A DNA stretch of 59,331 nt, filler included, from Rhizaria sp. SCN 62-66 (lineage: Eukaryota): NCBI GenBank assembly GCA_001724265.1. It is 3 parts of 3 records of this genome, joined end to end, with 100 filler letters (N's around TTAATTAATTAA, not from the genome) between each part and the next. Parts side by side here need not be neighbours in the genome. Positions count along the whole stretch, not along the records: positions 1 to 19,874 come from MEDY01000461.1; positions 19,975 to 39,755 come from MEDY01000462.1; positions 39,856 to 59,331 come from MEDY01000463.1. The stretch is one strand, 5' to 3'. Every line of letters starts with the position of its first letter. The stretch's first letter is position 1. Of the stretch, positions 6,809 to 59,254 are shown one piece after another. The position numbers and the translations under genes are program-made. Below the pieces are notes generated by a model. That model had not been told where the DNA came from, made no database searches, and saw only the letters and a program-made list of their open reading frames with translations.

Positions 6809-9800
6809 ATGAGTCAGCCATCTTTGGCGCCTTCTTCGGCCGTTGTGCAGTTGAGCCTTACGGGCGGCTCTCACGCCACCGTGGCCTCCGCCGCCGCAGC
6901 GGCCAGCTGCGGCGTCTATGACCCCGCCGCCGTCGCGCACCTGCCCTCCGCACTAATCCACGCCTTCGCCTTCTGGGCCGCCGCGCCCGGCCTGGCGCTC
7001 GAGCGCGACAAGGTCTCCGCGCTGGAACTGCTCGAGTCGGAGGAGCGGCGCTGGCACGGCTCACCCTCGCTCTTCAGCTCGCTGCTCCCGCGCCCGCTGC
7101 TCGAGGCGCTGTCGTTCGACCTCTCGCGCGATGTGCGCATCGCGCTGATGCGCGCGCTGTCCACGGCGGCCTTCCTGCACCCGCTCGACCGTGCGCGGCT
7201 GTGGCGCCTTATCTCTCCGCGCGTGACCTTCTGCCTGAACTCGGAGATGGCGACTGTGCGCTGCGAGACGGTGCGTGCCATGTGCAACCTTTTCCAGTCC
7301 CCGCGCTCGCTTGCCTTCGACATCATGCTGCCGGACAACTCCGTGGTCAACATCATCTTCGGCAACCTGCGCTCTTCGCACCCGGGGCTGCTCACGCAGA
7401 CGCTGACGCTCATCGCCGCGTTCTGTCCGTACAAGAGCTATGCGCAGTGCATCGCAGACCTCAATATCAACTTGGCGGCGCTGCTGCCCGTCGGCGCCCC
7501 CGTCGCCGGCTCCGGAACCACGGACGCTGAGATGCGCCGCCATTACGTCGCGCTGACGGAGACGTACACAAACGCCGCCCGCCGCGCCATTATGCAGGCT
7601 CAACCGTCGTTTCTGACCGCTCCCGCCGCCGACGCGCCTGCGCCGTCCAAGGAGAGCGCTGCGGCCGAGCTGGCGCAAGCTAAGGGCATCGTCGCCGCGG
7701 CTGCGCGCGGACAGGATCCGCCGGCGCTGCTGTCGCAGAGCGTGCTGTCGCTCCTGCCGGCCTTCCTGGCGCCGCACCACGGACCCTACGTGCAGTTCGC
7801 GGCGCTGTCGGCGCTGGTCGCGGCCTTCCGCACCGGACTCTAGGACGGGGCAGTGTCGGAGACTTCCGTGTGGGTGCCCGCGGGCAGATTGGGCGATCCC
7901 GCCACGGCGGCGACGTCTGTGGCGCACGCGCTGCCATGGCGCTCGCCCACCGTCGCCTCGGTCGTGTTCGAGCTGCGGGTCACAGCGCTGTCCGAGGCCA
8001 TCGTCGCCGCGGACAAGGCCGCCACGGCCGCGAAGGCTGCCGGCGACACCGCGGCTGCTGATACGGCAGCGGCTGCGCTCAAGGCAGCTACAGACGCCAA
8101 GAACGCGCTGCCGCAACACCCTGCGCTGGTGCTGGAGCAGGCCCTCAAGTCCGGTGCGGACGTCAACAAGCTCGATGGCGTGCGGCTCGTGTACAAGCAG
8201 TCGCTGCTGGCCGCGCTCGTGGGCTCGACCGTCGCGCGCACGGGGCTCTGCGGCGCGCTCGCATCGACCTCTGCTGAAGTTGTGATTAAGGCATGCGAGG
8301 TTATTACAGCACTTCTGTCGCGCACTAGTGTTGGCCTCAACCACGCGTTAATGAGGCTTAAATTCCTGCGCCTGCTCGCGATGACGCCGCCCGCGCCACC
8401 CCGTCCCGCCGCAGGCGTGGGCGCGCCGCCGCAGCCGTCGCAGGTCCCGCGGTCGTGTCTCCATATGCTTGCCTCCCGCATCGCGGCGCCTCAGTCGTCG
8501 GAGGAGCTGGGCATGTGGACTGTGGAGCAGCGCGCCGTGCAGGAGTCCCTATGGGGCGTGGTCGCGCTGGCGTGCGCTGAGAGCGACTTCGCGCGCATCC
8601 TGGCGCCGCTGGTGCTGCAACGCGCGGTGATGGCGCTACAGATCCTGCCCGTCACACCCGAGGACGCGGCGCGGCAGACGGACAGCGAGGTGCGCATTGT
8701 CTCGCATCAGACGCCCACGCACCGCTGCGCGCCGGGATACATGATGGCCGCGCTTGTGATCTCCCAGCTCCAACACTTCGATCTGCTGAACAGCACGCGG
8801 CAGGAGCTCGACACTGCGGCCGCCAACGGCGCGCTGGAGGAAGTCAACGGCGCGCGCGGGCATCTTCTTCGTCTCACACCCGCCCACATTGCGACCGTTG
8901 TGCAAGACGTCTACACGCTGGCATCGAACCCGCTGTTCAAGTGCGACTCGTCGCGGCCCGCGCCCGTGACGGACGTCGGCGTCGCTGTGCCCGCCGTGGC
9001 CGGTGGAGCGGCCGCGGTGCCGTTGACGGCGCTTACGTCGGTCGTCTCGGACCCGTCGCGCGCGAGTTTGGCTAGCTCGTCGACCCCGATCAGCGTCGAG
9101 GACCGCATGTGGCGTAAGTGGCAGCGCGACTACGTCACTGCCAGTGCGATCGTCGCCAACTACTGCGTGACAATGCCGTCCGACCCCTCTGCGGTCTCCG
9201 CGGGCGCCAAGGGCGCGGGCGGCCCTCTGCGGCCGACCCCGGTGCAGATGTACCAGGACCACGTCGTGAAGTTCCTGCTCGGTTGGATGTGCTTGGCTCT
9301 TCAGCCGGGCTTTGTGCGCACGCTTCCGCTGCGCGGAGCTGCGGGCTCTGCTGCCGCCGCCGCTGCTGCCGCGGCAGCGACGGCTGCGTCTCACGCCGCT
9401 ACTGTCGCCGCATCGATGGGTCCCGACAGTCCTGAGGCGCGCGCTGCTTCCGCCGCCGCCGCTTCCGCCGCCGCCGCGGCCGCCGCAGCGGACCCCGCGA
9501 AGGTGGCGCCGCCGCTGCAGACGGCGTCGTCGCTGCTGACGCCTGCGTCGCTGGGCTTCATAACGGCCGAGATCGAGGCCGAGCTGGGGCCCGTGTTCGC
9601 GGAGACGGGCGGCCCGCTCGCACTCGCGGGGCTCTGTCTGCGGCCGGACATGCCCGCGCTGGCACCGCAGCTGGCTCCGGGCCTGGTGTCACTCATGCGG
9701 CAGTCTCCGCTGGCCCTGAGCGTTATGTGCATGCGCGGCATTAACCCGGAGCACATTCCCGCGCCGGTGAAGCAGGTCGAGTCCGTCGGCGCCGTCGGCG

Positions 9801-10573
9801 ACGGCGTGGCCACCCTGCTGCAGCTTGCGCGCCTGTGCGCGCAGCGCATCAAGGCCGCCTTGGAGGTTAAGAACCGCTTCCTGCAGGCGCAGACCGTCAA
9901 GAAGTCTCAGTTCAAGCGTCTGTACGCGGAGGATAAGGAGCTCCAGGCGCGCCGCGCCGCGATGCAGCCTTCCGTGGCCGCCGCCGTGGCCGCTGCGGGC
10001 GAGGACGATGCCGCCAAGAGTGTCGCCAAGGAGCCGCTGGCGGCGGTGGATAGGCAGTTGCGCGCGATCAGCGCGCGCTGGCCGTCAGTGTACCGCACCT
10101 ACGATTACTGTGCGCTCGTCACTGGGCGCTGCGACCAGGCGATCAGCGAGGCGCAGCGCGTCGGCGCGCACTGCGTGAGCGCGCTGGCCGCGATGCACCA
10201 GGTGGTGTCGCCTACGGGCGAGCAGCAGCCGCTGCACCCGTTGTTGTACTATAGCGACTTGTCACAGCTCGCTGAGACAGCGCTCAGGTTTGCCGGCGAT
10301 ATCGGGCTCCCACCGCTCGCGCGGGAGGCCTTGGAGCTTAAAAAGCAGCGGTATCAGCAGCATCTTCAATATCAGCAACAACTGCAACAGCAACAACAGC
10401 TCCAGCAACAGCAACAACAACCTCATCAACAGCAAATGATGCATCAGCAGCAGCACTACCAGCCACAGCAGTCCCAGCATCAACAGCAAGGATCGGCGTC
10501 CCGCGGCAAGACTGCCGCTTCGGAGGCTCCGGCAATTGAGCAGCAGACAAGGCGCGCGTTTGCGCAGCAGTGA
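6809..10573 (+). CDS. Large ARM/HEAT-like helical protein with C-terminal poly-Gln, ~1254 aa, with one in-frame TAG at 7841-7843
   Basis: ORFs 6809-7843 and 7853-10573 share a frame and are separated only by TAG GAC GGG GCA. GC-rich codon style is continuous on both sides and there is no intron signal. The protein has Leu/Ala-rich helical repeats (e.g. VRCETVRAMCNL, VIKACEVITALL). Terminal stop is TGA. Confidence 0.75.
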
Positions 10574-33215: not shown

Positions 33216-34004
33216 ATGTCGGTGATACCTTTACCAGAAATGGGTACGTCTTTAATTCTCGCTTTTCAAAACATGTGTTCATTCATCCTCATTATTGCTT
33301 CTGAAAAACTCAACACCCAGACCCAGCTGAACGCATCTTGCCACGCGTCTTGAATCGCACTTTTTACCCCACTATAGAGTCTATTCTCCAGTGTGTTGTT
33401 TGTCTTGAAAAGGCAAACGAACCACTCATGTGTACAGTGTGTGCACACATCACATGCAAAGGCTGTGTCAGTGTACGTATCCCCGATACTTCGTCTTTAT
33501 CCTCCCCTTGCTTCTTTCGCTGGGCGTCATCACTATTAACCGGGTTGCATGTCTCACACCCTGCACAAACGCATGTTGATTTGATTGATAATCTGTACAT
33601 AGGGGTGGAATGCACAATCAGCGTCCTCAAGTTGCCCGTCGTGCCCTCCTGGCACTGTACGCTCGCGTCTTATCCCCGCGACCGCCTTCCTTTCCCGCGT
33701 CACCTCTGCCATGGCAACTGACGCGACGGCCACCGCGACTGCCTTCGCGCGTGCCGACGCGCTCGTCCGCGCCCGCCTGCTCGAACTCCAGCTCTCCGCC
33801 GCGCAAGCCTCCGCGCAGGACTCGCTCTACGCGTTGCGCCTCTCGTTCCAACAGCGCACCCTAGTCGAGCAGCTCGACCTCCTCACCCGCCAGCACGCCG
33901 CCGGCACCAGCACCGCCGCCGCCGCTGCCGCCGCCGCCGCTGCCAACGCGGCAGAGGAAGGAGACGCCGACCCCGCAGATGAGGGCATTATCGCCCATGA
34001 TGAC

Positions 34005-34063
<59 letters not shown>

Positions 34064-41017: not shown

Positions 41018-44000
41018 TCAATTATCGTCGTCGTCATCGTCTAAGTATGTTGTGAACGCGACCATTTGCGGCGAGCCACGACCTTGGGTCTTCTGCGGCG
41101 CAGCGCCCGCCAAAAACATGACTCCCTTCGCAGTCACGGTGCCTACTGATGCCGGCGGTGCCGGTGCAAGTGCAGGTGCAGGTGTCGCATCGCCAGCGCC
41201 ACCTTGAGTGCGATTGAAACTCTCGGCGTCAGCGTCAGCGTCAGCTTCAGCGTCGGCGTCGAGTAGCAGTGGCGAGAGAACGACGGTGCGCACGCTCTCA
41301 CCAACGCTGATGGTGCTATTGTTGTCGCTGATGCTGTTGCTGCGGCTGTTGCTGCTGTGGAACATGCGCGGGTGCGGCTGCACGGGCGCGCGCGAGACGG
41401 GCAGGGGTGACAGCGAAAGCGGCCCCGTGTCCGCGCCAGACGCCGTGGTGAAGACCACTGAAGCAACGGCCGGGGGCGGAACGGAGGGTGCGGCCACGAT
41501 CGCGCCCACAGTCAATCTCGCGCTCGTGGTGACTGCAGCAGGCACAGGTAGGGACATTGGCAGGACCGGTGCGAACAATTGCACCTGCGTCTGCGTCTGC
41601 GTCTGCGTCTGCGCTGACTGCGACTGCACGTGCGAGTTTAAGCGCAGGTGCGACTGCGCGCGCGAGCCCATCGGGGAGTGTGACGCCGAGCCCGACTGCG
41701 ACTGTGTCTCTGGCAGCAATTGTGGCAGCGACTGAGAGACGGGCACCAAGTCATGGGAGGAGCCTAAGGCTGAGGCCGAGCCTGCTGAGCTGAAGTGCGG
41801 CATGGAGGCCACGCTTTGCGAGCCCGTGACTGCGACATGAGCTAACTCAGTAACGGGCATTGACGCGGGAGCTGTTGTTGCCGTCGAGCCTTCACTCTCG
41901 ACAGAGCCGGAGCTGTGGCCCGTGCCGCTGGGGGAGGCGGCCAGCGTCGCGGTCGCAGGTACAGCGTTATAGGTGCCTGCGGAAGGATACATCGCACTGC
42001 CGCTGTTGCTATGGCTGCTGCCGTTGAGGTGATATGGAGTTGCCTTGGCGGGGCCTGCCAGTGTGCGAGTCGTCATTACGGGGGTGACTGAGTGCGAGTT
42101 CGTAGCAGAGTGAACAACAGGATGTGGCGGCAGCGGCGGCTGTGCGCCAGCCAGCAGCCCTGAGGTCGAGGAGGTCGACATGGTCGGCGCTGCGGCAAGC
42201 GACCGGTAGTGCATCTGCGCCGACTGCGACTGGGGCAGCGCCGTCGACCCCGCGGCCGCAGTGCTGGCCGTGCTGCCCGCAGCCGGCGTGACGGGGGCGA
42301 GCGTGGAGATGGATTGTGAGGTGGCCAGGGGCGGGTACAGCGGCGTCGCGAGCACGCCTGCGCACCCCGCAGCTCCCGCCACAACGTGACTGTGGCCAAC
42401 AAGACTGTGTCCGCCGTAGCTGTAGCCACCGGGTTGTCCATAGAGACCCGAGTACGCGACGCGAGAGGTGATTGCGGACGCAGGGCCGAGGCGCGACACG
42501 AGCGCAAAGCCTGAGGTCGGGCCAAGCGTCGATACGATCGCGGGCTCGCGATCGGGCCGCGAGCCGCCGCGGGGACTGGGCACACGCCGGGCCTGCGAGT
42601 CGACGTCGGTGCCGGGCAGCGCGGGTGCGGAGACAAAGGCCGAAGCCACGCATGTGACGGTGTTTGTCGACATGATGTCATCGCGGTCACGGTCGGGGTA
42701 GGCGTCAGCCTCGCCTTGGGCGATAACATCTGCGTCGTGCTCCATGTCGGGGGAAGGAGATAAAATGGGACCGAGCAAGCTATGACCAAGACTGAGACCG
42801 ATTCCATGAGCGGGGCCTTGAGCATGATCTTGAGGCTGTACCAACCCAAGTTGCACGTCTCCATCCTGTTCCAGGCAATGCGCCAGTTCTTGTGCTTCAG
42901 CAGTCGCCAGCGCGTTCACACAATGACGAGCACCATCACCATCACCTGCACCCGCAGCAGCAGAGCCTATGTCGACACCTTCAGTCATGACAGCGGTGTT
43001 GCCAGCTGTTATGCTTCTTGTAGCGGTGAAATTGACCGTCATTCCTGCAGCAGCGCTGACGGCACCATCACGCGGAGTCGAACTGTCGTGCACGCCAATG
43101 GCGGGCGACAAATTCGTCACTTCATCATTCGTCGCTTCAGCTACCGGGGACAGCGACAGCGTCGGTGCGACAGCAGGAACGGATCCGTGCTGACTGCTAC
43201 CACTGGGGGTACTGTTGCCATCAGAGTAGTACTGATCGTTAGCAGTGATGTTGTAGCCGTGCTCTATAGCGACATGATTAAACATGACGCCACGCTGCTG
43301 TTGCTGCTGTTGCAGCACTTGCTGCTGTTGCGCGTACAAATTGTGCTGCCGTTCATGATGCAATGCAAAAGAGTCGGACCCAGCACCGTTGTTAACTACA
43401 GCTGCAAATGGGTGCCCCGCAGCCATAGCAGCGGCTGGGTGAGCGTGCCCCAATCTTGCACCCAGTCCGAGTCTGACACTAGGAGCAAGACTGATGCCAG
43501 GGATGCCGCTGTGTACAGGGAGTTGACCATCCTGGTTGTTGCCGACAACGTTGCTGTTGTTGTTGCGCGCATTACCAGGCCACGCCGGCGCGACATCCTG
43601 CGCCGTTGGAAACGACAGCATCGGTGCAGTGCGTGCATGTCCTTGATCCGGGGGCGCAATGTCGTGGCGTTCACCACCCGCAGCGGCTGCCACCACACGC
43701 GCAACAGGTGCAGCACGGCGCGGGAGTGGGGCGTCAGCATGGCGCTTATTGCGGCGACGGTGCTCCGCAATAGGCATCGCAGAGGCGCCCACGCCCGTGC
43801 CAGCAGTCGCGACCGCGCGCGAGACGGGGCCACCGGTGCGGCGTAGTGCGCGCGCGCCGCGCGCAGCTGCAGCGCGCGTGAGACGGCGCGCCTCTTCAAC
43901 ACATAGCGACTGCGGTAGCGAGAGCGAGGCGTGCGCAGGCATTGCCGACAGCGACAGAAGACAAGTCCCATCACACTCCGCACCGCTGTTCTTGACACCG

Positions 44001-47000
44001 GACCGCGCGCGCTCTTGAGCGAGTTGGCGCAAGATCAGCGGCAGTGGCTTAGGCAGCGCGGTGGAGTCCGCGCCTGGAAGCTTAAGCGGAACGAGCTGAG
44101 GACCCTCGGCCCCGCATACACAGAGCGCAAGCGGAAGCCGAATAGGCGGCAGCAACGCTGCCGCCGGCGTGGGCTGTCCCTCTGCCGCAAAAGCACGCGC
44201 CATCTCGAGCGAGACAAGCGGCGCGTGCGGCGACAGCGTAAGTTCGCCGAACTGCGTGATGTACAGCGGCAGCGGCTCCCACGGGCGTGCACATGCCGCG
44301 GCGGGCACGCCGTGCCGCTCGATCGCGACAAGCACGTGAGTTGCGAGCGAGAGAGAACGCGCGCGCAGTGACGTCTTGCTGGTCAGAAGTGACAACCCCG
44401 AATGAACAGCGGTCGCAGCCACACCCACTGCAGCCACAGTAGGACCTTCATGGCCCGGAAGTGGCGACGCAGTCATCCTATTGTACGGGCCCGCGTTCAA
44501 GGCAAGCTTGGTCGCGCTAGGACCAGCGCCCGTGAAGGATGACGGCGCCATACTGCCAGGTGGAGGCGAGGCGCCGAGTAGATAGTGCGCTCCGCCAGCG
44601 TTAGAGATAAAGTCTCCGTGTGCAGCGCCAAGTAGTGATCCACCAAGAGCAGCGTGATTTGGCGCAGCGGATTGGGCAGTCGGGGGCCGCCCACGCCCGT
44701 CGTAGAGCGAATCGACCGAGAATGCGCACGAACCACCTCGAGAGTTCAGCTCGTTACTTTGATTGTAGCCAAAAGCGGGAGTCTGTGAGGCGCAAGGGTC
44801 ATAATTGACAGGAAAGTTGTAGATCGCGTTGGCGTTGGCGCTGTTGGAGTTGTAATGTCCCGAGTTAAGACTCGCGAGAGCGTTGTCAACACCAAGACTG
44901 CCAACGCGCGCAAGTGCTTGCGATGGCAGCGGACACGCAGCCACAGCACCTGCAGCAGCAGCGGGGCCGATATATGGACTAAGGGGTTCTCCATCGGGCC
45001 CAACTGCATTAAAGTTCATACAAGCGTTGCCCGAGTTGGCCGCGGCCGCGGCAGCGGCGGCAGCAGCGATGGCGAGCGACGGTGTTGGACCAGGTGAAAC
45101 GACCGGGCCGCACGAGAGAGCAACTGCAATGCTGTCGGCCAGGCGTGTGCGTGTACAGGATGAGATACGAGCCACGCGGCGCTGGCCGACAGGGCAGAGC
45201 TGAGCTGTAGTTACAATAGCGGCGCCAATTGCGTAGAAAATCGGCTCCAGCACCACCATAGCGATGACAACACCACCAATCATCGCCAGAAGTGCAAACG
45301 CCGATGTTACACCAGGCACCGCGTCCGCGCCGCCGAGCTGCATGGCGCCGCTGAACGTAGCCAGGATAAGGACGACAAAAAAGACGGCTGTACAGACCCA
45401 AAGCACAACGCGCAGCGGTGCCACCTGATGCGGGGGCTTTACTACAGGAGCTGCTGCTGCAGGCGGCACGGGCGGGTCACTGGAGCGTTGACAGACGCCA
45501 AAAAAGCAGTTAGCGCGTGCGCGCCGCGCAGGCGCGGTGTAAGAAGCAACGAGACTGTCCTGCAACGGTGCCAGAGCCACGTGCTCGCGCAACAGCGCGG
45601 CTAGATACACTTCGGCGCGTGCAGGCCCGCTCAACGCGGCCTCGGCACTAGAGGCCGCGGTGATCATGCCAACAGCGTCAGTTGCGCGCAGTTTGCTACC
45701 GCGAGGCCCGATATGTGTGGCTGTGACCTTGGGATCATTGATGACAGCACTCTCAGAGTCGCACTCCGCACCAGCTGTGCCGCGCGTCGCAGTGCCGCGG
45801 GGGCTTGCGCGAGGGCTCGGCTGTGTCTGACCGCGCATCTGGGCAGGCGCAAGCGTATTTGCGCGCATATTCGGGCTGGGACTGCGGCTGGTGATGACGG
45901 GTGCAGATTGTGCAGCTGAAAGCCCAGAAGAGTGTACGTCGCTGCCATACGTCGCCAAAGATGCGCTTCCACGAGCATCAACCCTGCGCTGCACGAGCAC
46001 AGGGACTGGGATCGCGGAAGGACTCCGGCGTGCGTCAGAGTTGCGCCGGCCGCTTAGGCGAGTACTACTGTTGCCGCTCAGTCCGCTGGCGTGGCCTGTG
46101 TCGCTAGTGCCTGTGCTGGAGTGAATTGTCAGCGCAGCAGGTGGATGACGCATGCGCGGCGCTGCAGTAGAGCTCTGCATCCGTGTGTCAGGCTCAGGCA
46201 AAGAATCCGTTGTATCAAACTCGGCGTCTGAGTCGGCCCATCCCGCGCCGGCAGTGGCTGTGGGGTGGGCGCTTGAGCCAGCGTCGTTCTGTGCGGCCCG
46301 AAGTAGCGCAGCGTGCTCGCGGTACAGGGCCCTTGTGAGTGCAGCTTGTTTGTTTGCATAGGCACCGGCGTCGCGATCAAATGACCGCAGCCACGCGTGC
46401 GAGGGAAGTCGCAGAAGGCGTGCAAAAGCAGAGGTTTGCGTGAGCACAGGGGCACCAGCCTGAGCGGTTTGCGCGTCGTTATCTTCGTCGTCTTCACCGG
46501 GCATGCCGTATGCGTGCGGCGCGTGTGCGTGGGCCATTGCGTACGGATATGCGCGCATGTGCGCGAGCGCAAACGACGACGGGACGATGTCACTGCCGCC
46601 GACAGCGCCGGAAGTGGCATTTGCAGCCAACGCTTCGACTGGCGGCGCGTTGTCCGAGGTGAATGCAGAGGCGAGCGTCGAACCGAAATGTGACAGGTGC
46701 GGAGCATCAGCCCCAACTTCAGACCGTACATTGCGCTGTGATTGAAACACGTGCTGCGACGCCGACGCCGCGGGTATACGTCCTCCCGTTGCTGGCTGTC
46801 CACGAGGATGCGTTTGGCCATTACCATAAGCTGGGATGGCGTCACCGTCGCCGTCACCCTCACTTTCCCTATCAGCGGCGATGTCTGCAAACATAGACCG
46901 CCTCTGCGGCCCGTTGGCAGGGCGAAGAGTAACGCGACGCACAGTTTTATTGCGGCGCGGGCGCCCAGCGTTAAGCGCGAAGCCTGAAGTCGCGCCCACG

Positions 47001-50000
47001 CCAAAGCGGAAGCCGTAGCCAGGCATCAGAGCGTCCCATGCACCCACGCTGTCAATTGACTGCGGATTGCTCATGGACTGATGCTGATGTTGTTGCGGTG
47101 CACTGCCGTTCGAGAGCACAATACCGCGCACACCGCTGTGACTGGTTGTGTGCGCTGGATTTGATGATGACAAGTTGGAACTGTTACTGTTGCGCACTGG
47201 TGGCAGGAAGGTGTCCGTGTATGTCGTCGGCAGCAACGGCGGCTGGGGCGGAGGTAACGGCGCGTCGTTGCGGCCATTGTCATTCACAGCAACTCGCGGG
47301 GATGCACGTGGCGCGCCTGCCATGTTGACCGAGCCATTCGCAGCGTTGTTGCCAAGAAAGCGACGCGGACGGTTCAGGCCACTTCCACCAAGCGCATGTA
47401 TCGGTGATGCAGATGGTGACCGACGCGGGGTGCTGCCAGCAAGGCGTGAACCCGTGTTGGGACTGCGGAAGCGTTCACGACCGCGTGTGACAACACCACT
47501 ACTACGCTTGCCACCGCGTGGCCCACGATCACTGTCGCCGTTGGATGGTGATCGGTTGGGCATGTTAGGGTTTCCAGAGCTATTCGTATTACGCGTCTGC
47601 GTAACCTTAGATGGGGCGCGCGAGCCGCGTAAAGCGCGGTGCGAAGCGCGACCCGCGCGGTGCGAGCTTTTATCAGCACCTGATTGCGCAGAATCAAACG
47701 TATCATCGTAGTCGTCATCAGCCTCTGCACTGTGTGAAATATTAGCGCCAGCAGAGCCATCGTTCCCGGCCTTGAGCGCGGCCTCAACTAGTTGCTGCGC
47801 ATGTTTCATGTCTGCAACTTCATCAGCGATGGCTTCTTCACCCCACGCAGCACCACGTGCAATGAGATCAAGGCCGGATGTAACGCCACCTTGAGGACGC
47901 AGCGCAAGCAGACGGATGGCCTCCATGCGCGTGAACACGGAGGTGAGTCCAGTGTGGTAGAGTAATGCGACTTGTTCTGCATACGTGAAAACAAAGCGTT
48001 TGAGCCTCCCTGGGTCAGCGCGTGAGTATAACCGAGCGAGCACGCACGACAAAAGCATGAAGGCCACCGCGGCGGCACAAGCCGCAACAAGGAGCACAGG
48101 CAGCGCGCCAGTGCCGTGATGCACGCGCACCCACGGAGTCGCGTCTTCCGCGACCGGCGTCTGCGTGTCTGCAACAATTTCCACCACGGTGAAATATGAG
48201 CCAAGTATATCCGCTCCATAAGGGCCGGCGAACCACAGCGCAGCACACAGCGCGCCCGTGAGCGCGGTGGTAAGCACCAGCACGCGCTCTGCCGATGTGT
48301 AGGTGTCTGTATAGTCGCGCGTGAAGACGGACATCAGCGAGTGCGAACTTCGGAGCCGTTGCTTCGTGCGGCGCCCGCAAGTTATGAGACACCAGCAGAA
48401 TTGACAACGAGCCGGCTTGGCGTGCGCGGCAGAGGCCGTCCTGGACTGTGTTGTCGCCATGATAGGAGGCGTGACGATCGAGGCAGAGGGCGGGATGTGC
48501 GTCATCTGCTCTTTGCGCGCAGGCGAGTCTGGTGCAAACGGGGTCGCCGGCGGTGCGAGGGGGCCAGGAGAAGATGCGACACCGCCTCCCCACTCACAGT
48601 CACCAGCACTTCTGCGGCCGTCGTAACAGTAGCTGTCACCATTGTGGTCGTAGTTTGCGTTATGGTTGGCATCATCGAGACTACCGTCCCGCGCTGACTG
48701 GCCCCAGTGCGTGGCTCCCCAGTGCGTGGCGGGCTGTTCGCGGCTGTGCGCAGCGCGGGATCTCTCTTCGTCTGACGGCGCGCGCATTGACACAGAGGAA
48801 CCATGCACATCTATGCGATGAGGTTGACGTTGCTGCTGCAGCTGCTGCCGCAGTTGCTGCGGCGGTGACGGCGACGCGAGAGGCCGGTCACGGCTATTGC
48901 TGGGGTCATCGCCGCCGTCACCAGACTCATGACTCGCGCTGAGCGGCGGTAAAGTGGCACCTGTCACACGTGACGTCAATGAGCGCAGACTATGCGCGTC
49001 AGTCACCGCGACCGAGGGCACAACCTGCGAGGGTCCGACGAGAGAGTTACCAACGTACGACTGAGTCGCCAATGATGGCGCATCAAGTGACGGCGCAACA
49101 GCGCTAGAGTGGCGCGAGCGTCCACCGTTGCGTTTGGCCCTGCCAGAGTTGGTCGCAGATGACGCAGATGAGAACGAGTCCACAGAAGATGCACTGGGCG
49201 CGAGCGAGTTTGTTGCATTGGCAGAGTGGGGTACGGAGTTGGCGAGCGCGGACACAATGGCAAGATTTTCACCCGCAGTCACAGGCTCTGTAGAACAGCT
49301 AGTTTTCTCCTTCGCAGCAATTTCTGCGGCTGCGACCGCAGCCACCGCAGTTGCAAGCTGCACAAAAGCATCATCGAGCGGGCCATTTGTCGGGTCTGCG
49401 GGCAGCAAAGTCCAGCGTGTTGAGAGATCGCACAATGCTTGGGTATCGAGCTTAAGATCAAGCGTAACCGTGGCTTGTAGCGGACCCACAATGGCAAGTG
49501 CAAGAAGCACGATGAGCGCGATGAGGATGATGGGCGCAGACTCAGCAAGCCAAACGAGTGACAACGTCCGCATCGTTTGCTTTGGCGGCACAGGCGCGTA
49601 GTTACGCAGGGTCATGGGTGACAGCACACCGGAGCCGACGAGGAACGAGTCCTGCGATCGTGCGCGCACAATGCCCACCGACGCCGAACCCCGGCACGCT
49701 ATCGAGATGCCAGACGGAAGCTTATCCAGCCCATAAACGCTTGCGGACACAGTCGGTGCACACGTTGCAGCTGTTGCCGGAGTCGTTGCTGTCACGGTCG
49801 TCGAGTCCGCGCTGCTTGTCGTTCTTGTTGATGTAGTGCGCGTGAAACTCGACACACGCTGCTTCTGCGTTGCGAGCGTGGACACGCGCGGACTTTGAAC
49901 GCTGATTGAGGATACAGCGACATCGCCAACATTACCACTTTCGTCATCAGTATCAGAGATACTGTTCTCATCAACATTAATCGAGTTTGTATCCACATCC

Positions 50001-53000
50001 CCGGATGCCCACAGTGAACTCTCTGATGCAAGCGGAGACGCAAGGAACTGCCATAGCGCGCCAGGCTCAGCGGTGACAGTCGAGGAGTCCGTGTCGCTCA
50101 TGGATGACGACACGCTCCCACCTGTGGACGTGTTAGCGGCCACAGACCATTCCCACGAGACACCGGGCACAGCGGTTGTCGTTGACGAGCTGTCCGCCGG
50201 CAGCGCCGGGAGCGTGAAGAGCTGCTCTGCCGAGATAACATTCCGCAACACAGACTGAGAAAGCAATTGAGGCACAGGAGATGTCCCTGCAAACGCGCGC
50301 GGGGGAGATTCGTTTGTACTACCATTGCTGCTCAAATTGCTGCTATCGCCGCTGGTTTCACTTGTGGTCCCATATTCCGTCAGGGTGACCGTGCGAGGAA
50401 ACCAGTATGTCACAGCAAAGCGCCCGCCAAAGTCGAGTCGACGTAGCGCATCGGCAGTCGCAGATGGCAGTTTAGTGTAAGGTACATCTTCAGTCGGGAC
50501 CGCGTAAAAGGTGTGAAAGGGGTTGTGAGACTTTGCGTCATCAGTTATTTGCGTGAGTACACCTTTGCGGCCGCGATAAGGCAACGAGACATGACCTGTG
50601 TTCGGAGGCGCTCCGCGCAAATGCGGCAAAGCTGCGGTAGCCATGCGTGTGGTGTTCACTGTCGCGGAGGCAAACAAAGAAGCGTTGCGCGTGGTATCAT
50701 TGCGATTGGCCATCAAAGATTGCGTGGCTATCCCTGTTGAGGTTTGGAAAAACTGTGCTTCCTCGACTATGGCAATTTCCAGCGCGCTTGCCACGTCTAG
50801 CGCGCCATCTGGCAGGAATGGCAACAAACCGCGCGTGCCTGCAGGCGCTGAAGGAGCCATTTCGCGAACGAATACACGCACGTTAAGTGCCGGAGACGAC
50901 GCGGAAGGATCAAACCAGCTTGCGCGGTATTTAGACCCAGTCGTTGTGGTACTTACTCTTGTTCCAACCCGTGGACCCGTATTTGCTTTGGTACTCGCAG
51001 TGCTAACGTCACTGGCGCCCCAAATACGGGTCCAGAGCCCACGCGCAAGGGCGACGAACCCCGTATCAGCACTGTCATCGGCGGTGCTAGTATCAGCGCT
51101 TACGTCAACACTTTCATCGGTGTTCGCGGTTGCGTCAGCGGCCATGTTTTTCGAGCTGGTGCTGCTGCTGACGGTAGTGGTGCTGCGAGTATCTAATCCG
51201 TCGGACGAGTTGGAGATTGCAACAGTCGGAGCGGGCACAGTCGACGAGCCTGAAAAGTTGATCACAGACGAGATAATCTCAGTGACCAAGTCATCATCCG
51301 TAAATGCACCACCAGGTCCTGTGCCGACGCGGTCCTGACCGCCACCGAGCTTGATGTACCGACGCGCGGCAGCGAGTTGCGTGCGCACAAGCGTAATCTG
51401 ATCCGTCTTAAGAGCTGTGAGACTCGAAATGAACTCAGATCCACGGCCAGCCGCAGCGGCAGGGACGGGCGACGCAACCTGTGCAAGCACTACGTCAACG
51501 ACGGAGACATGGCGGCGGGCTAGGAAGCGGAACAACGAGTGCGGTAGCCACACCAGCGGCGCAGCCAGAGTATGAGGTGCCGCAGGGATATCGGTGCTTG
51601 TGGTCGTTGTCCACGTGGTTTTCGCGCGAGACGCAAATGTCTTAGATGCGGTCTTCTTGATCACGGGTTCAGTCTTCTTTGTCGCAGTCGCAGTCTGCGT
51701 CCTGGCTGTGCTTGCAGCTTTTGAGGTCATCCGAGACCGCGACGCAGCTGATTTCTTGCGAACGCGAAGAGCGTCAAACATTGGTTGCGCATCTTGAGAG
51801 TCCGTCTGAGAGTCGGCCACAGATGTGGTGGTCGTGCGCAGCGGCAACTGCACCGCTGCGTCGCGCATGCGCACAGGAGCCGCAATTCGAAGTGCACGTC
51901 CAGTGACAGTCTGCGCAGTAACATCAACACGCAACGAGCGCACAGCGAACCCACCCGCGGCGGCATTGCGCACGGGCTTTCCATCGTATGTGTAAGCCTC
52001 CGTCGATATGGGTTGGGGCTGGTCGAGAAGGTTTGTGTCCGGGTGCGAAGCATATCCGAGGGTCCAAAAGTCAGGTGCTTTGTCAGCCTCTGTCAGCGAG
52101 GCTACAGGATCAGCGGCGGATGCAAATGCAGGGTCAATCTCACATGTGACAACGGCACAGGTAATTTCACGCACAAGTGAAGGCGAAAGCCGGACAGAAG
52201 GTGCGCCGGTCTGAATAAGACCGCGGCCGAGTTGTACGCCAGCAGCAAGAACGGAATCAAGCACAGAGGTTGCTTCGAACGACGCTAGAAGCACTGCGCG
52301 CGCACCGGGAATTGCGCGCACAAGACCAAGCGCAGTCTTTGAAACAGTGTCACTGACTGTCGTAGTCGTGCGCGGACCGAGTGTGTTGACAGACTTCTGC
52401 TTTTGCTTCAACTGTGATAAACCGCTTGCCTTAGCGCTCGCAGCCATCGCAGAAAGCTTAGAAGCAGAGCTTGTTTTAGCACTAGCGGCAACAGAATCCG
52501 CTGCAATCTCAGCCTCAGACAGAAGATGACGAATACGGGCATCGTGCAACAGCTCCGTCACAACAGACTCCGTGGCGTAGTTGCTTGCCTCAAGCTGCAG
52601 TGTCACTGCACGTAGGACCAGCTCCAACACACGTGCCACTGCTGCAAACGTGTCTTCGACAATCAGACGTGAGCCACGGCCAATAACAGGTATGGCGTAT
52701 GATGAAAAGGAACCACCAAGCACACCACTGGTCTCATTGCCAGTGCGGCCCGCATCCCCTACCATGGCGGCATCAGTACGCAGACGCACATCTTGCCACT
52801 GATTCGCGGGCGGCGCGCCGGGCATTGGGCCACTTGAGGGATTATACGGCACGTCACCAACAACGAGCTGGAGCTGCCAGCGTAGCAAAGCTAACACGCG
52901 TGCACGCGCGGCAGGCAAGCGCAACAGTGTCGGTGTGACCGTCATAGTAATAAGGTGTAGCGCGGCGTGCGAAGAGAGACGCGTGGTCAAAACTGGCGTG

Positions 53001-56000
53001 GTCTGGTTTGAAGTTTCAACGGAAATTACAGTTCCGTTAAGGGCAATATCGTTAAGCGGCGAAGAGTGCGACAGTGGAATAGGAGTGTTCATGCGGATCG
53101 ACTGCTCGTCATGTGGCACGGCAGCGCGGGAAACTTCGCTGCGTTGACCAGGTGTTGCATCTTCGGTCGTCGCAAGTTGCGGTGCATGTTCAGCAAGGAG
53201 TGAAAGAAGCTTGAGTGCACGTCGTGTTGACGAGTCGTTGGCAATGTGCTCCGACACGGGCGCAACGTACTGCAACGCGTTAAGCGGTGCCACAAGCTCT
53301 GCGCCAGGGAGATACGGGACAATGTCGAACAAACGCCCAACAGCTGCCAGCGTTGCCGCCTCCGCCTCCCACGGCAGTGCAATCGGAAGTGAGGTCGGTG
53401 CGACTGTCCCATTACTATTGTGAGTAGAGATCCTATCAGAGTCGACAGCAGTAGTTTTAGCCTCGTTCTCAGCAGCCAGTGCAACAGCAACAAGATTAGC
53501 GCGCGCGGCGTAAATTGATGCCTCTGCGGTGGCAGCCAATGCCAGAGTCTGCATTTGCATGTCCGCGTTCTTCATTGCAGTCTTGGCAACAGTGGAGTAG
53601 GCCTCAGCTGCGGCTTCAGCGCGGTCAAGGATGCCACGCGCAACCGTGTAATGAGACGTGTTGGGTCCAGGTACAGGTGCAACAGCGGGGACAGGGACTG
53701 CGGGGAGTGTAATTGTCACTCGTTGCGATGACTTAGAGCCACTGCGCGAGTACACACTCACCATAACCTCAACAATGTCATTTTCGCCTGTCACCGTCCC
53801 GTCCGGAAGCGGCAGCCCTGGAGGCGGACGAGGAACCGAGACAACAAAGTATGGCAGCTGCTGCCAAGGTCCGCCCTCGAGCTCCAGTCCTTGAGCGGCC
53901 CAAGGTGAATTTGGCGCGCCTATAGGTCCCGGATTGATGTGCTGTGCAGCATAGGCAACTGCTTGCTCGAGAGTTGGACTGCGCGCAGTCCAGTGATACT
54001 CAAGAGGGTTCTCCTCAGCATCAAATGCCCCACCACCACACACAATCCCGACAACGGCGTGTAACGGCTCCACCAACGCAGTGATGTTACCCCACGGTGC
54101 AGAAATAAGACCACCCGTAAAAGGAATGATGTCTGCGTCGCGTTGGAGCGAAAGAGACTCGAGCGACAACTGCCGGCACGAGCCGTGCTTAGGCGCTGGA
54201 GGCAGTTGCACGCGCACCGCCGCCGAGTGTAGTGGACGCGCGAGTGCCACAGCGGCACGAAGAGCACTTGCCCACGCGTCGGTTGATACGAGTCCGCCGT
54301 CAACAGGACTAATCAGCGGAGTCAGAATTGCGACTGTAGCTTCCGCAGCTTCGCGCGCAAGCGTAGTGGGGCCTGGAGTTGAAGTTTGCGCAAGCTGCGA
54401 CGTGACGAGTGCGCCAAGAATATTAGAGACGACGTTTGTGACCGTAGTAAGATCAAAAGCAGCTGCCTCTAACACGTACGTCACACCGGGGAGCAATTGC
54501 GATGTGCGAAGAACAAGCGACTCGCCGTACGTCACGCTTGACAGGGCCAGCTCAGCTGATGCAGTCTTGCCAAAGAGTGGCGCCATTGCAGTGGGTAGCG
54601 CAACTTCGACTGCTGCAGCAAATGCAGCTGCGATCGTGCTATTGGCTACGCCTGCAGCCGCCGCAGCACTCTTCACCGACATCGTGGCCGCGGTGACGAT
54701 CGCCTGCCGCAGCCGAGTCAGCGCGAGCGGCGCGCCGGGCGCCATAACCTTAGCTGGGTCACCCAGAAAAAGCTCTGATGAGGCCAGCATGTCTGCACCT
54801 TTGATTGCTTCATCGGACTGATCACCAGAAGACTGCGAGTTACGTACCGCGGCGCGGCGTGTCGTAGATGGGGTGTCGTCCGCGGCGACGTTGGCTGTGA
54901 CCGTGCGCCAGCGGATAAAGAGGTTAGAGCGCACGCGCGCAACGTGATCGATGCTATTTGGGTCACAGTCCGCAGGCGCAGTGCTCTTTAGACACTCGAG
55001 AGCGCCCGCGTTGCTAACGTGAACATCGGCGTTGAGGTGCACACCTGCTCCGACACCGTTGGCGCTCGTGCGGGGACCTGTCGCAACTCGCGGCACAATG
55101 ACCACACGCAGCGCTGTGGCGATGCCAGCTGCGGCAGAGGCAGCGAGTACGGGTGCCCGCGGTGACGGTGCGTTATCACTGAGCGCAGCCGCAGCCTCTG
55201 CGCTGGGCGGAGGCACTGTGCGACGAAGTCGGAGCGTCACACTGGCGCGCTCTTGAGATGTCTGAACACGCGAAGCCCAAGAGGCTGCGCGAGGCGCAGA
55301 CACACTGTCGTCATTAACACCGACGCCCTCCTGGCCAGGCAAGTATGGCGCAGCTGTGAGCGTAAACGTGACCTCGACTGCAGTTGCGGTGGGTCCCATA
55401 AGAAGCGAAACAAGCTCTGGCGGAACGAACAGTTGCTCGTTAACGTCGCCTCGAACAGAAGTTGTACCGGAAGCGTATTTGGCTTCAAGGCGTGCTGCAA
55501 GTTCAATACCCGCGGTTGTGCCAAACAACGGAGAGGACACCGCAACTGGTTGAAAGCACGGCTAAGACGGGCCCAGCGGAGATGCACCACCACCCCAGTC
55601 GTACATTGGCGACCACTGCGCGCGTTGCAATGCGTCAGCCGGTGAGATACGAGCGTTGACGCCCAGACGGCGACGTACAGTGCAGTTCCAGCGGTACTCA
55701 ACAGCGAAGGGTCGCATAGTGGAGTTCAATGTACCATCAAGGTAAGTTGCATGTGCAGAGAGCCTGATGCCACTGGGCGCAGGAACAAAAAGCAGCGGCG
55801 TTGTAGGCGTAACAACGGTGATGCGCGGATGAATGGTGCCTGGCAGGACACGGACAGTGATGGTCTCAGTGGACGATAGCGAGGACGATGGCTGCGCATC
55901 GGATGTCAGCGGTGTTTGCGTTACAGTTGCGGAGAACGTGTACGTTGAGCCAGGCTGAAGTGAGCGTGGTGGCAACAACAGCATGCGTGCCATAGCGATA

Positions 56001-59000
56001 GCACTGCCGTCACGCAATACCTCAACAGTGGGACCAATATCAACGTTCCATCGGTGCGATAACGCATGTGTTTGTGCTGTCGCATTCAGTGAGAAGCGCG
56101 ACATAGCCATCAGCACGAGCGGTGTGTCAGCCAAGGCGTGAAGGTAACGCATACCCGTCGAAGTATCCAAGAGTACAGCGTCAAGGTTAGTGGACATCGG
56201 CGCACCAGCGGGCGCAAAGACTGAGGGGTCTGCTGCCGTGCTGCTGATGGAGGCCAGCGTTGCGCGTCCACCAAGCCCGGCTGCGGCGTACTCCGCGTCG
56301 CGCAGAGGAAGACTTTGCGAGATAATACTAATCTGTGGTGCAATGCGCGCAAGACGGACGAGGGGCATTGTGCACGACGAGCTCTGACCGAGCCAGTTGA
56401 TGATAACAAGCCGCACTTGGTGCGTCATGCCGGGCGGGAACAAGGCGTCAGCTGAGTCAGCATCGATGTACAGCGAAGGCAGCGGCGCGGGCGAAGATGT
56501 CGTCGTGAAAGGCACGCCGATACGCGTCGGCGTGTAGATGGAAGCGTACTCAGCAAACGCTGCGGTCAGAACACCTGTTGGATCACCACTTTGAGCAACA
56601 AGCTCAAAATTGTACTGCAGTAAACGGCCTGCACCACCACGGGAAAGACCACCGGCGATTGCGATGGGAGTCCCATAGCCAGACATCGTGGGGAATGTTA
56701 GCCGCGCCCTGACAGGTGACCAGCGAGAAAGGTCACGGCTGTGCTCGGGAAGCAGTCCGACACCCGGAGAACTCAGCGGCGCATTGTCCATCACAAGCTC
56801 AGGCATCTGTGTGTCAGCAAGCCGCGGCAGCGATGTGGGTGCGTCCGGGATAACGAGAATCAAAGGACCTAAAGCAGGAAACCCCGTCCAACTGCCATCC
56901 TCGCCATCACCAGTGTCGTCACCATCGTCATTAAAGTCAGATTCAGACGTCAGCGCAACAGCAACGCGTGGAATAATCAAACACGCAGGCGGGATAAAGT
57001 CAACACGCGGGTTCGCTGACAGAGGCTCGACTTCGCTTGCAGTGAGCCGCGCATCGCGCAGCCACGCATCAGCGGCCAACGCAGGCGGTTCCTGCGCCAC
57101 AGCAGCAAAGGAGGGCGTCTCGGCCTGGGTTGAACATACCGACTGCACCAGCTCCACGGGCCACGGGTAGCCGAGCGCAAAGGCTGCGGCCGCGGCAGGA
57201 CAACCACGCATGAGGTCCAGCGGCAGCCGGCGCGTGTCCATCGGGATGCGGTCCGCTTGTAGCGCGATTGTCGCCACAGCCCCGGGCTCCACGACAGACG
57301 AGCCAATAAGGGATGCCGGAGATAGTTTGTGGTTGACGCCGAGCGCAATGGTCAGTGTGTAGGCGCTGGACCAGTAGCACTTCGCATCCGTCCCACCAAT
57401 CGCGGCGAGTGACGCGGGCGCAATCAGAGCCTGACACGTCGCGTACGAAGACACTGCAGCAACGCTAGATGGCTCGAACGTGGAGCCTTCAACAATAGTG
57501 TAGGCCATCGCACGCGCCCGAGCCCGCGAGTTTGCCCGCTTTGTTGCGCCACCGATACGTTGAGCGATACCGCGACCACGTGGTGTTGCAGTGCCTGCGC
57601 GCGCCGCTGTTTTCCGAGGAGCAGTGACCTTGGCCTCAGCTGTGATGAAGGCGGTCTTGGGCTCAGACTGAGCGCTCAACTCCTCGTTTGTGTCACCATC
57701 AACTTCTGAGTTTGATGGGCTATTAACACCGGTGCCATCATCATCAGAGTCGTTTTCAACAGGCTCTTCGTCATCAATCGGGTCAGAGGTGTCGTTATCG
57801 TCGTCGTTGTCGAGGCTTCTCGCCTTGCCGCTGGTAGTGTCACTATCAGTGCTATTGGTGCCAGTGCTGTTGCTGCTGTCAGAAGTCGGGAGCGGCTCAA
57901 ACTCAGAGCTAGTGCGGGGAACTTCGCCCGCAGGCTGCTGTGCAAAGTCAGAGAAAGCGCTATCAGGCATGAACGCCGGCGCCGACGACCATGCCATGTT
58001 TATCGGAGGGACGGATGCGGCAGGCATGGTTGTGGGATGCGAGAATGTCGCTCGTGCGGTGAGCAAGTATGGATCAAAATCAAGCCGCATCGCGCGCAGC
58101 TTTCCGACACATACAACCTGCGAGCCGCTCCAGCGGCCATCCGAACCACAGACGCGACTCACTGTGGTCTTGTTGGCATCAGGGAAAGCGGGAAACTCCG
58201 TCCGCGCAGCGCGCACGCCGCGTGGAGGCAGTAGAGGCGTATAGCCTTCCTCACAACCGAGCTCAGCAACAGTGCCGACAGCGTAGCGCTCGTCGGCCGA
58301 AGACGGATCAAACGCACCCGGGCTTTGAGTGTAAACGGGCTTGATACCCCACGCCGGCAACAGCGAGTCGAGCGACGAGCACGACGCAGGCACACAGCGA
58401 ATCGCGGAAGCTACGGGCACAGACCACGCGCCTGTCGGAAGACATTCGAGCACGGACAACATCGATGCATCAGCTGCCGCAGCTGCGTTTACGGCACCAC
58501 GCAGCCGGAGTGCAGATAACCGAGCGCGCGTGTCGGGGCCCAACGACGAAAATGAAAACCCGGCGGTCGTGTCCGCAGCATTGGCTGTTGAGAACACAGG
58601 CAGTGTCGACTCCTCCAGCCACGCGCGCGCCGAGTACACCGACGCGGCGACGTTGGGGTCGGCCTGCAGTGCAGCTTTGGTGAGCTTTTCTGTCGGAATA
58701 TCCATCAGTTCGCCCAGCACAGCAGGGTCGTATCCAGGAACAAAGCCCGTGGGGCAGCTGGCGAGTCCAAGAGTGCCAATGCTGTACCCCGTCGTATGCG
58801 GGACCATGGGCGCAGTGTACGTGCGGACCACAAGGTCGTAGGCCAAGTCGGGAGCTGGAGAATCACCGCCGTCAGAGACCGCGACCGGGATGGATGACGA
58901 CGTGGGGACTGCCAAAGTCAGCGAGGCGCCTGGAGTGGACTGCAAAAGGCCGGTTAGCAGCGGACACTGGACGGGGTAACACGTCCATACAGTGCTCCAG

Positions 59001-59254
59001 TCAACTGTTGCCATGGCGCCCGTCGCAGGTGTTGTATCATCCACTGGCGGGGGCACCGTGGGCACTGTGACGTTGGCGGCAGCCATTGCGCGGACAGTTG
59101 CAGACGTCGGACCCCACCCCACTCCTGTCGTGCTGCCGCAGTACAGCTCCACGCCGCGCGGCATCGTCACCGAGATGTGGGACGCAGCACTGGGGTCTGA
59201 TGCATTTCTTGGTCCACTATTAACTGAGGACAGATAACCCCTATGTAGCGTCAA
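41018..59254 (-). CDS. Giant polycystin-1/REJ-like membrane receptor with N-terminal Sushi (CCP) modules, >=6078 aa, 5' probably incomplete, one in-frame TAG at 55562-55564
   Basis: Sushi-like module: C..GTVAELGCEEGY..RVCGSDGRWSGSQVVC. REJ/PKD-like strands: LQPGSTYTFSATV, YRWNC..PCF, LLPGVTYVLEA, PPAPKHGSC..PLEYHW. TM segments and polycystin-type motifs: HSLMSVFTRDYTDTYTSAERVLVL..ALWF and VVIAMVVLEPI. ORFs 55562-59254 and 41018-55540 are in frame across one TAG. Stop is TGA. Confidence 0.8.

Follow-up and report, generated by a model that had tools for sequence, protein, structure and literature searches.

In-frame UAG codons in long genes of an uncultured GC-rich flagellate: a possible case of UAG read as an amino acid

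Uncoupled reassignment of UAG in nuclear genomes has been described for just a handful of lineages (PMC5304391; PMC11687900). In Iotanema spirale, as reported by Panek et al. 2017 (PMC5304391), UAG encodes glutamine in the nuclear code, and UAA and UGA are stops. That report gives 204 in-frame UAG codons in 126 genes, with glutamine at 22 of 28 hyperconserved positions, and UAA as the main stop (104 versus 15 UGA). It also describes UAG as a leucine codon in the rhizarian exLh (Sainouroidea). Other UAG-only changes described by McGowan et al. 2024 (PMC11687900) are those of phyllopharyngean ciliates, Protocruzia tuzeti (glutamine) and the green alga Scotinosphaera (serine). Ambiguous codes, in which codons act both as stop and as sense, are described from Condylostoma, Parduczia and karyorelict ciliates (PMC4967479; bioRxiv 10.1101/2022.04.12.488043).

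The DNA analysed here, a window of 59,331 nucleotides, consists of three metagenome contigs joined at two runs of N (19875-19974 and 39756-39855). Its source is an uncultured, GC-rich flagellated eukaryote (protist) in samples from bioreactors and wastewater. Spliceosomal introns, a squalene synthase and a ciliary gene (B9) mark the window as cellular DNA. Its GC content of 50-75%, its introns of 97-150 nt that start with GTACG and its genes, some as long as 18 kb, are in our view unlike a ciliate genome. Pfam recognised three conserved genes, encoding squalene synthase (SQS), B9 and PP2C, and none of the three contains an in-frame TAG. Neither tRNA genes (ARAGORN) nor Rfam matches were found in the window.

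An initial annotation had reported in-frame TAG codons at 7841 (+), 24106 (-), 35646 (+) and 55562 (-), from which it concluded that UAG is probably a sense codon in this organism. The letters of all four codons were checked and are present. We find that translation of UAG as an amino acid accounts better than any other single explanation for the codons at 7841 and 35646, and probably for the one at 55562, but not for 24106, and that the evidence is thinner than first described. Unproven from a 59-kb sample, this is a possible case of recoding, to which we give about an even chance. The features concerned are as follows.

6809..10573, plus strand: gene 1, an orphan of 1,254 codons from ATG 6809 to TGA 10571 and containing a single in-frame TAG
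7841..7843, plus strand: codon 345 of gene 1, an internal TAG flanked as CTC TAG GAC
24094..24108, minus strand: gene end with four CAG codons, TAG, GAA CAT GAT and TAA; TGA TGA lies ten codons past the TAA
31075-31224 (150 nt) and 31337-31441 (105 nt), minus strand: RNA-supported introns; record 28 of the X7 contigs joins 31074 to 31225 and 31336 to 31442
33711..37900, plus strand: gene 3, low-complexity and coiled-coil-like, with an exon at 33711-37138 and a last exon running to TGA 37898
35646..35648, plus strand: TAG inside gene 3, flanked as GCC TAG GCC
37139-37281, plus strand: inferred GTACG intron of gene 3, between exon 33711-37138 and the last exon
41018..59164, minus strand: giant orphan gene of 1,200 + 1 + 4,847 codons, from ATG 59164 to TGA 41018
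55562..55564, minus strand: TAG inside the giant gene, flanked as TCT TAG CCG
55562..55678, minus strand: candidate in-frame intron of 117 nt, GTACGT...TCTTAG, whose 3' AG is that of the TAG itself

Like Iotanema as described, the window contains in-frame UAG only, keeps UAA and UGA, has clear gene ends without UAG and belongs to a non-ciliate flagellate. Unlike in Iotanema, there are three TAGs in about 15,000 codons and none at a conserved position; UGA rather than UAA is the main stop (8 versus 3), and one TAG may still terminate. The rhizarian exLh is likewise a non-ciliate protist with a reported UAG-only change, and its leucine means that UAG need not stand for glutamine. No phylogenetic link to exLh was found: the best named match of the squalene synthase, a chlorarachniophyte protein at 55% identity, has no value for placing the organism. 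This enzyme is of the eukaryote type according to Atlas and a homologue search, and its nearest relative, 77% identical, lies on a JGI contig. With the phyllopharyngeans, Protocruzia and Scotinosphaera as reported, the window would share an uncoupled UAG, and any new lineage would join a known kind of change.

We examined 14 coding segments with 15,065 codons in total and found neither TAA nor TGA in frame. In-frame stops there are limited to the internal TAGs at 7841, 35646 and 55562, a usage of about 0.2 per 1,000 codons. Twelve gene ends could be examined: eight TGA, three TAA and one TAG followed by TAA (24106/24094). GC falls after each of the eight TGA and three TAA ends, which agree on recount with the eleven clear ends first annotated as TGA or TAA and never TAG. 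UAA and UGA therefore still terminate. The absence of TAG from these ends is a weak argument for recoding, since zero TAGs in 11 clear ends has a probability of 0.012-0.167 at a normal TAG share of 0.33-0.15, and counting 24106 as a TAG stop would make it one in 12.

High GC3 (0.8-0.95) is a coding-specific mark in this DNA and does not dip across the TAGs at 7841 and 35646. Non-coding stretches have a GC content of 0.38-0.47 and the checked introns 0.31-0.55. Upstream of all other long ORFs the sequence becomes non-coding, so an in-frame TAG is no general artefact of GC-rich DNA. As had been noted, the frames stay open past three of the TAGs and keep their codon style: RSCU on the two sides correlates at r = 0.94 (7841), 0.89 (35646) and 0.90 (55562), and under phase-specific composition the log10 probability of the downstream frame being open by chance is -6.5, -1.8 and -34.5, respectively. 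Thus the TAGs at 7841 and 35646 lie inside continuous coding-styled sequence, and that at 55562 lies between long matching frames. Codon style nevertheless varies within the window: the gene on contig 3 has a GC3 of 0.59-0.61 versus 0.72-0.89 in contigs 1 and 2. That contig 3 belongs to the same organism rests on binning, and this deviation counts against UAG as a sense codon.

In gene 1, the codons ahead of the TAG have a GC of 0.67/0.53/0.87 at their three positions and those behind it 0.72/0.52/0.81. All 20-codon windows between 50 codons before the TAG and 69 codons after it keep a GC3 of 0.80-0.95, and the frame beyond the TAG stays open for 909 codons. None of the 56 in-frame GT..AG candidates at 7841 starts with GTACG or has a GC content of 0.55 or less, the lowest being 0.71. 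This TAG is within unbroken coding sequence, and a credible intron is absent. Outside the window, P0003, the ORF ending at TAG 7841, was found on six contigs in JGI/IMG, Logan and ENA, and one 91,750-nt contig carries both P0003 and the ORF P0004. The JGI contig L001, the only match of a metagenome scan, is identical to the window over 5933-8343 (2.4 kb). Gene 1, like the other TAG-bearing genes, matched no Pfam family at E 0.01. The whole gene yielded no homologue among 8,000 scored candidates, a list that was probably swamped by low-complexity words, and residues 1-1200 compared with 1.84 billion representatives returned only two fragments of itself.

In gene 3, GC3 remains at 0.65-0.95 across the TAG at 35646, which is followed by about 700 codons. 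Of 67 in-frame GT..AG candidates at this site, none has a GC content of 0.55 or less; two start with GTACG, measure 87 and 321 nt and have GC contents of 0.70 and 0.68. This TAG, too, is within unbroken coding sequence, and no credible intron is present. A polyA-RNA run (X5) contains pieces identical to the gene 3 region at 33610-33861, 34518-34784, 35147-35419, 36298-36804 and 36863-37140, which flank the TAG on both sides; no listed piece bridges it. Over the non-coding bins of 37795-39114, depth was 0.09 and 0 in X5 and 8.3 and 7.3 in a DNA-like run (X4). Exact ORF look-ups found no independent assembly carrying TAG 35646. Thirteen guessed ORFs, from the flanks of 35646, the gene ending at 24106 and gene 1 past 7841, gave no exact match, which counts neither for nor against the TAGs, as gene callers may have chosen different starts.

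The two parts of the giant gene have similar GC at the three codon positions (0.62/0.58/0.61 and 0.65/0.58/0.59). The log10 probability of being open by chance is -9.2 for the 1,200 codons before the TAG, besides the value given above for the 4,847 codons after it. P0124 (1,200 aa), which ends at TAG 55562, is on six contigs in Logan and ENA, and P0125 (4,840 aa), which starts seven codons past the TAG, is on three. Two of the three internal TAGs, 7841 and 55562, thus recur in separate assemblies. The giant gene matched no Pfam family at E 0.01, a 601-residue stretch around the TAG returned no homologue, and a self-BLAST of the whole protein for internal repeats that might place the 38 codons before the TAG in a module gave no significant repeat. 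An AlphaFold2 model of 501 residues around the TAG had a mean pLDDT of 32 and was unusable. A Flavi_capsid match near the TAG in a search at E 10 (E 0.2, 11.9 bits versus a cut-off of 27), the only one there, is probably noise, and a REJ-like domain was unsupported by the Pfam search.

The TAG at 24106 had been annotated as internal, a reading that we abandon. GC3 drops there from 0.70 to 0.35, the next three codons all end in A or T and are followed by TAA, and TGA TGA comes 14 codons after the TAG. An E/Q/H-rich reading runs on through both the TAG and the TAA. Record 3 of the X4 contigs, from a 2025 sample, is identical to the window over 23429-24432. This TAG is best read as a gene end, either uninformative or an ordinary stop, and its resemblance to a working TAG stop (A/T-ending codons, falling GC3) counts against UAG as a sense codon. 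UAG might also be at an early or ambiguous stage of capture, sense inside long genes and still stop near the mRNA 3' end, as at 24106; we regard this as quite unlikely. It would make a non-ciliate, GC-rich flagellate a living intermediate of stop-codon reassignment. The dual use described for Condylostoma, Parduczia and karyorelicts, in which a codon is sense within genes but a stop towards the end of the mRNA, would fit both the internal TAGs and 24106. Unlike those codes, where several stops are reported to be involved and frequently used, a single codon is concerned here at very low frequency; dual use is possible.

Under the standard code, the internal TAGs could be recent nonsense variants of the CAG-to-TAG type, marks of young pseudogenes or metagenome consensus errors. 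The downstream frames would then still be open merely from lack of time. We consider such an origin unlikely, and the lack of time equally so. TAG is the nonsense codon to be expected: 59-62% of random nonsense substitutions under present codon usage give TAG, and three of three nonsense codons would be TAG by chance with a probability of about 0.22, so codon identity gives recoding no support. The three affected genes are fast-evolving orphans without detectable relatives, in which truncation might be tolerated. The tail at 24106 looks alike, with its TAG behind a CAG run, its TAA and TGA TGA and an E/Q/H-rich reading through both, and this TAG may work as a stop. However, when the window is compared with the contig pieces listed for an independent run from 2025, 2 of 7,447 letters are different. 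Random errors or variants as frequent as this would produce 0.28 nonsense codons in 45 kb of coding sequence, and the probability of at least three is 0.003 and of at least two 0.03. The 15,065 codons also contain no frameshift, besides lacking TAA and TGA. Further evidence against nonsense variants comes from the recovery of TAGs 7841 and 55562 in several assemblies, from polyA RNA that contains both halves of gene 3, and from the absence of any alternative letter at 10% or more at 35646 or 24106 in four runs (no listed piece bridges 35646).

Alternatively, the TAGs might never reach the ribosome, being spliced out in in-frame introns, most clearly at 55678-55562, or changed by U-to-C-type editing. 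This seems very unlikely. The two RNA-supported introns at 31075-31441 interrupt a small gene that ends in TAA 31008 (checked) and is covered by a spliced RNA contig; both start with GTACGT, and their GC contents are 0.46 and 0.40. All six checked introns are 97-150 nt long, start with GTACGT and have a GC content of 0.31-0.55 and a pyrimidine share of 0.59-0.91. Five of the seven introns read in the window end in TAG. A literature search on GTACGT intron starts yielded nothing useful. The initial annotation had ruled out removal of the TAGs by an intron, which holds for 7841 and 35646 and fails for 55562, where the 117-nt candidate (55678-55562) fits the six introns in start, length, YAG 3' end and pyrimidine share (0.68) and is a multiple of three. 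By a base-composition estimate, GTACG occurs by chance at an in-frame distance of 97-177 nt at about 0.03 per site. The candidate's GC content of 0.64, however, exceeds that of all six introns and all non-coding stretches and matches the coding sequence of the giant gene (mean 0.604, sd 0.055). TAG 7841 has no GTACG candidate, the candidates at 35646 keep their GC3 periodicity, and no splice joint at 35646 is among the joints listed. We know of no protist with nuclear U-to-C editing. Programmed, low-efficiency readthrough under the standard code, with UAG mostly terminating to yield short products and a fraction of ribosomes making long isoforms, would allow TAG to act as a stop at 24106 even though the frames past the internal TAGs are open and coding-styled. 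It is similarly improbable, because the downstream sequences, 909, about 700 and 4,847 codons with a full coding signature, far exceed known readthrough extensions. The contexts TAG-GAC, TAG-GCC and TAG-CCG have no motif in common, where programmed readthrough would be expected to show a shared stimulatory context, and in two of the three the base right after the stop is G, which in most eukaryotes promotes termination.

If UAG is a sense codon here, internal UAGs would be translated as an amino acid by true reassignment or by near-constitutive suppression through a UAG-reading tRNA, and UGA and UAA, which stand at 8 and 3 of the 12 gene ends, respectively, would act as terminators. We infer that ribosomes read through the TAGs and that this applies genome-wide. 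Glutamine would be a first guess for the amino acid, both from the known cases and because a single C-to-T change turns CAG, the glutamine codon used most here (388 CAG versus 124 CAA), into TAG. The only local hint at glutamine is the single TAG behind four CAG codons at 24106. GC3 bias, which had been proposed to explain the low use of UAG, leaves it unexplained, since TAG and CAG both end in G. Several points count against UAG as a sense codon. The internal sites number just three; each belongs to a low-complexity orphan protein and none to a conserved gene, and the one at 55562 is removable by a candidate in-frame intron with a consensus start and the right length. Usage is also far below the 204 UAGs in 126 genes given for Iotanema. 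No homologue spanning any site was found, so the amino acid is unreadable and continuity as a single polypeptide is a prediction.

Should the TAGs prove to be nonsense variants, or be due to an unusual intron, the finding would be ordinary. If UAG is indeed read as an amino acid, this would be an independent case in a GC-rich, intron-bearing flagellate of engineered water systems, and would extend such codes to a wider span of lineages and base compositions. That the codon is so rare would be relevant to the question whether reassignment begins with codon capture or with an ambiguous intermediate. Gene calling with the standard code splits this organism's genes at TAG; in public protein collections, gene 1 and the giant gene are already split in this way.

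The window comprises 59,331 bases in three contigs, with N runs at 19875-19974 and 39756-39855. It is eukaryotic DNA: a spliced RNA contig proves two of its introns, and the genes that can be recognised encode a B9 protein of the ciliary basal body, a PP2C phosphatase and a squalene synthase of eukaryote type. Given the B9-C2 basal-body gene, the organism builds a flagellum or cilium. Matching DNA is present in metagenomes of bioreactors, wastewater, activated sludge and microbial fuel cells. The part at 6000-11000 is partly present in 12 of the 14 listed runs, from eight studies, and three of the runs may be the source.

Features of the window, with coordinates and strand
1527-2687, plus strand: squalene synthase, eukaryote-type
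3881-5057, plus strand: B9-C2 ciliary basal-body gene (Pfam E = 8.7e-42 on exon 2)
3946-4064, 4468-4608, 5506-5602, 5694-5807 and 37139-37281, plus strand: introns predicted from sequence
6809-10573, plus strand: gene 1, with a TAG at 7841
31075-31224 and 31337-31441, minus strand: RNA-supported introns (joints of the spliced contig at 31074/31225 and 31336/31442)
33711-37900, plus strand: gene 3, with a TAG at 35646
41018-59164, minus strand: giant gene, with a TAG at 55562
55562-55678, minus strand: candidate intron, GTACGT...TCTTAG, 117 nt, in frame, pyrimidine share normal

Seven introns were read, two of them RNA-supported (both on the minus strand) and five predicted. All seven have GTACG at the 5' end, with T or C as the next base, and five end in TAG; the six that were measured span 97-150 nt with a GC of 0.31-0.55. 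So invariant a 5' splice site may be a clue to the organism's placement.

The initial annotation proposed that UAG alone is reassigned, and we found a TAG at each of its four positions: 7841 and 35646 (plus strand), 55562 and 24106 (minus strand). No in-frame TAA or TGA occurs in 14 coding segments (15,065 codons). The in-frame TAGs do not simply reflect long frames that stay open by chance where DNA is GC-rich, because the sequence upstream of every other long ORF becomes non-coding.

TAG 7841 lies inside coding sequence. Across it, GC3 stays at 0.8-0.95 in every 20-codon window while GC2 is lower throughout, a signature that only coding DNA has in this organism. As annotated, codon style is unchanged over the TAG (RSCU r = 0.94 between the two sides). 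A JGI contig is identical to the window over 5933-8343 and thus spans the TAG. The public ORF ending exactly at this codon is on six contigs from three public sources. Those ending at or beginning just after TAG 55562 are on six and three contigs, respectively; reads may be common to some of the assemblies, and their agreement is reproducibility, not full independence. Another public ORF, on an ENA contig of 11,891 nt, matches 7853-9000 and starts at a GTG three codons past TAG 7841. Its first 382 residues match the window and are followed by 40 unrelated ones, for which chimeric or frame-shifted assembly is the probable cause.

TAG 35646 is likewise inside coding sequence, with GC3 at 0.65-0.95 in every 20-codon window, GC2 lower throughout and the same codon style on both sides (RSCU r = 0.89). 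No independent assembly carrying this TAG was found, none of the listed contig pieces bridges it, and no alternative letter is reported at this position in four runs. A polyA-RNA run contains identical contig pieces on either side of the TAG, and its depth is almost nil in non-coding bins that are covered by a DNA-like run from 2025 (X4). Transcription of gene 3 is thus seen on both sides of the TAG, in separate pieces. In the giant gene, GC3 bias is weak, and the frames of 1,200 and 4,847 codons that meet at TAG 55562 have the same GC1, GC2 and GC3 and a common codon style (RSCU r = 0.90). The log10 probability of such open frames arising by chance is -9.2 and -34.5, respectively.

TAG 24106 did not hold up as an internal codon, as GC3 drops from 0.70 to 0.35 there. 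It is followed by three codons, all ending in A or T, and then by TAA, with TGA TGA ten codons later. This TAG is a gene end that is not countable as an internal sense codon, and is compatible with either an ordinary stop or a sense codon three codons ahead of a TAA stop. A contig of X4, which belongs to another study, is identical to the window over 23429-24432, covering the TAG. At 24058-24140 (minus strand), an E/Q/H-rich reading runs on past the TAG and then the TAA, up to the double TGA TGA; the C-terminus looks as if it had been shortened stepwise through CAG/CAA-to-TAG/TAA changes.

The twelve gene ends comprise eight TGA, three TAA and the TAG/TAA pair at 24106. That genes never end in TAG is thus true of the 11 clear ends, but one of 12 ends is an exception if 24106 is a TAG stop. 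With a TAG share of 0.15 to 0.33, the probability of finding no TAG among 11 ends is 0.167 to 0.012, and this argument for reassignment is weak. Strong GC3 bias had been offered as the reason for the rarity of TAG, which it leaves unexplained, G being the last base of TAG and CAG alike.

The best single explanation, to which we give about an even chance, is translation of internal UAG, which the ribosomes of this organism would read as an amino acid. The TAGs could instead be nonsense variants of recent origin, pseudogenes or errors of the consensus, which we consider unlikely. Most codons have G or C in third position, so that 59-62% of nonsense substitutions arising at random in the present codon usage would give TAG; three of three internal stops being TAG therefore has P of about 0.22 under plain mutation, and the argument that all are TAG is weak. 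The TAG at 24106 stands directly behind four CAG codons, a position as consistent with a CAG-to-TAG nonsense change as with UAG being Gln. Against such changes or errors, X4 differs from the window at two letters in 7,447 (listed pieces), a rate at which 0.28 nonsense codons are expected by chance per 45 kb of coding sequence and at least three have P = 0.003.

The TAGs are very unlikely to be removed or altered in RNA, all sites taken together. None of the 56 in-frame GT..AG candidates over TAG 7841 starts with GTACG, and the lowest GC among them is 0.71, in line with the annotated absence of a suitable intron. Two in-frame GTACG candidates over TAG 35646 (87 and 321 nt) have a GC of 0.70 and 0.68 and keep codon periodicity. 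Only at TAG 55562 does the claim that no in-frame intron is possible fail, since the candidate from GTACGT at 55678 to TCTTAG at 55562 would remove it. However, its GC of 0.64 equals that of the surrounding coding sequence and exceeds that of every checked intron and every non-coding stretch, and we regard it as unlikely to be a real intron. Low-efficiency programmed readthrough is an equally improbable account of all the sites.

If internal UAG is translated, the hint of Gln comes solely from precedent and from the CAG run before TAG 24106. No TAG-bearing gene has a Pfam family or a homologue in any search, and among 1.84 billion representatives an exhaustive search matched only two fragments of the query gene, split at the TAG. 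The predicted structure around 55562 was useless as a guide (pLDDT 32). UAG-only reassignment is established in Iotanema spirale (Gln) and a sainouroid rhizarian (Leu) (PMC5304391), and in Protocruzia, several phyllopharyngean ciliates and Scotinosphaera (PMC11687900). Iotanema has 204 UAGs in 126 genes (PMC5304391), whereas here there are three in about 15,000 codons. If UAG is indeed sense here, the present case would be a further UAG-only code, distinct in its very low UAG frequency, GC-rich genes and possible residual stop function. Within its limited coverage, a literature search turned up no description of such a code in a eukaryote from wastewater.

The giant gene reads as a single frame of about 6,050 codons without introns and has no internal repeats; the N-terminal part of its protein seems to contain Cys, and some stretches look hydrophobic and membrane-like. 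Coding GC3 is 0.72-0.89 in contigs 1 and 2 and 0.59-0.61 in contig 3 (39856-59331), while non-coding GC is 0.38-0.47 across all three and does not differ between contig 3 and the others (0.39-0.43). RSCU correlates at r = 0.84-0.97 among the genes of contigs 1 and 2, but at only 0.63-0.79 between these and the giant gene. This difference reflects either a codon style peculiar to the gene or a question of binning.

Within repeat-rich coding sequence, X4 lacks 3 nt at 37517 and has C and AC inserted behind 25292 and 25294. Gene 1 and the squalene synthase are also found together on a public contig of 91,750 nt. The closest relative of the squalene synthase is 77% identical and lies on a JGI contig of 1,954 nt. 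Several proteins of Chitinophagales MAGs named squalene synthase reach 55-61% identity, equal to named eukaryotes, and this similarity hints at gene transfer between domains.
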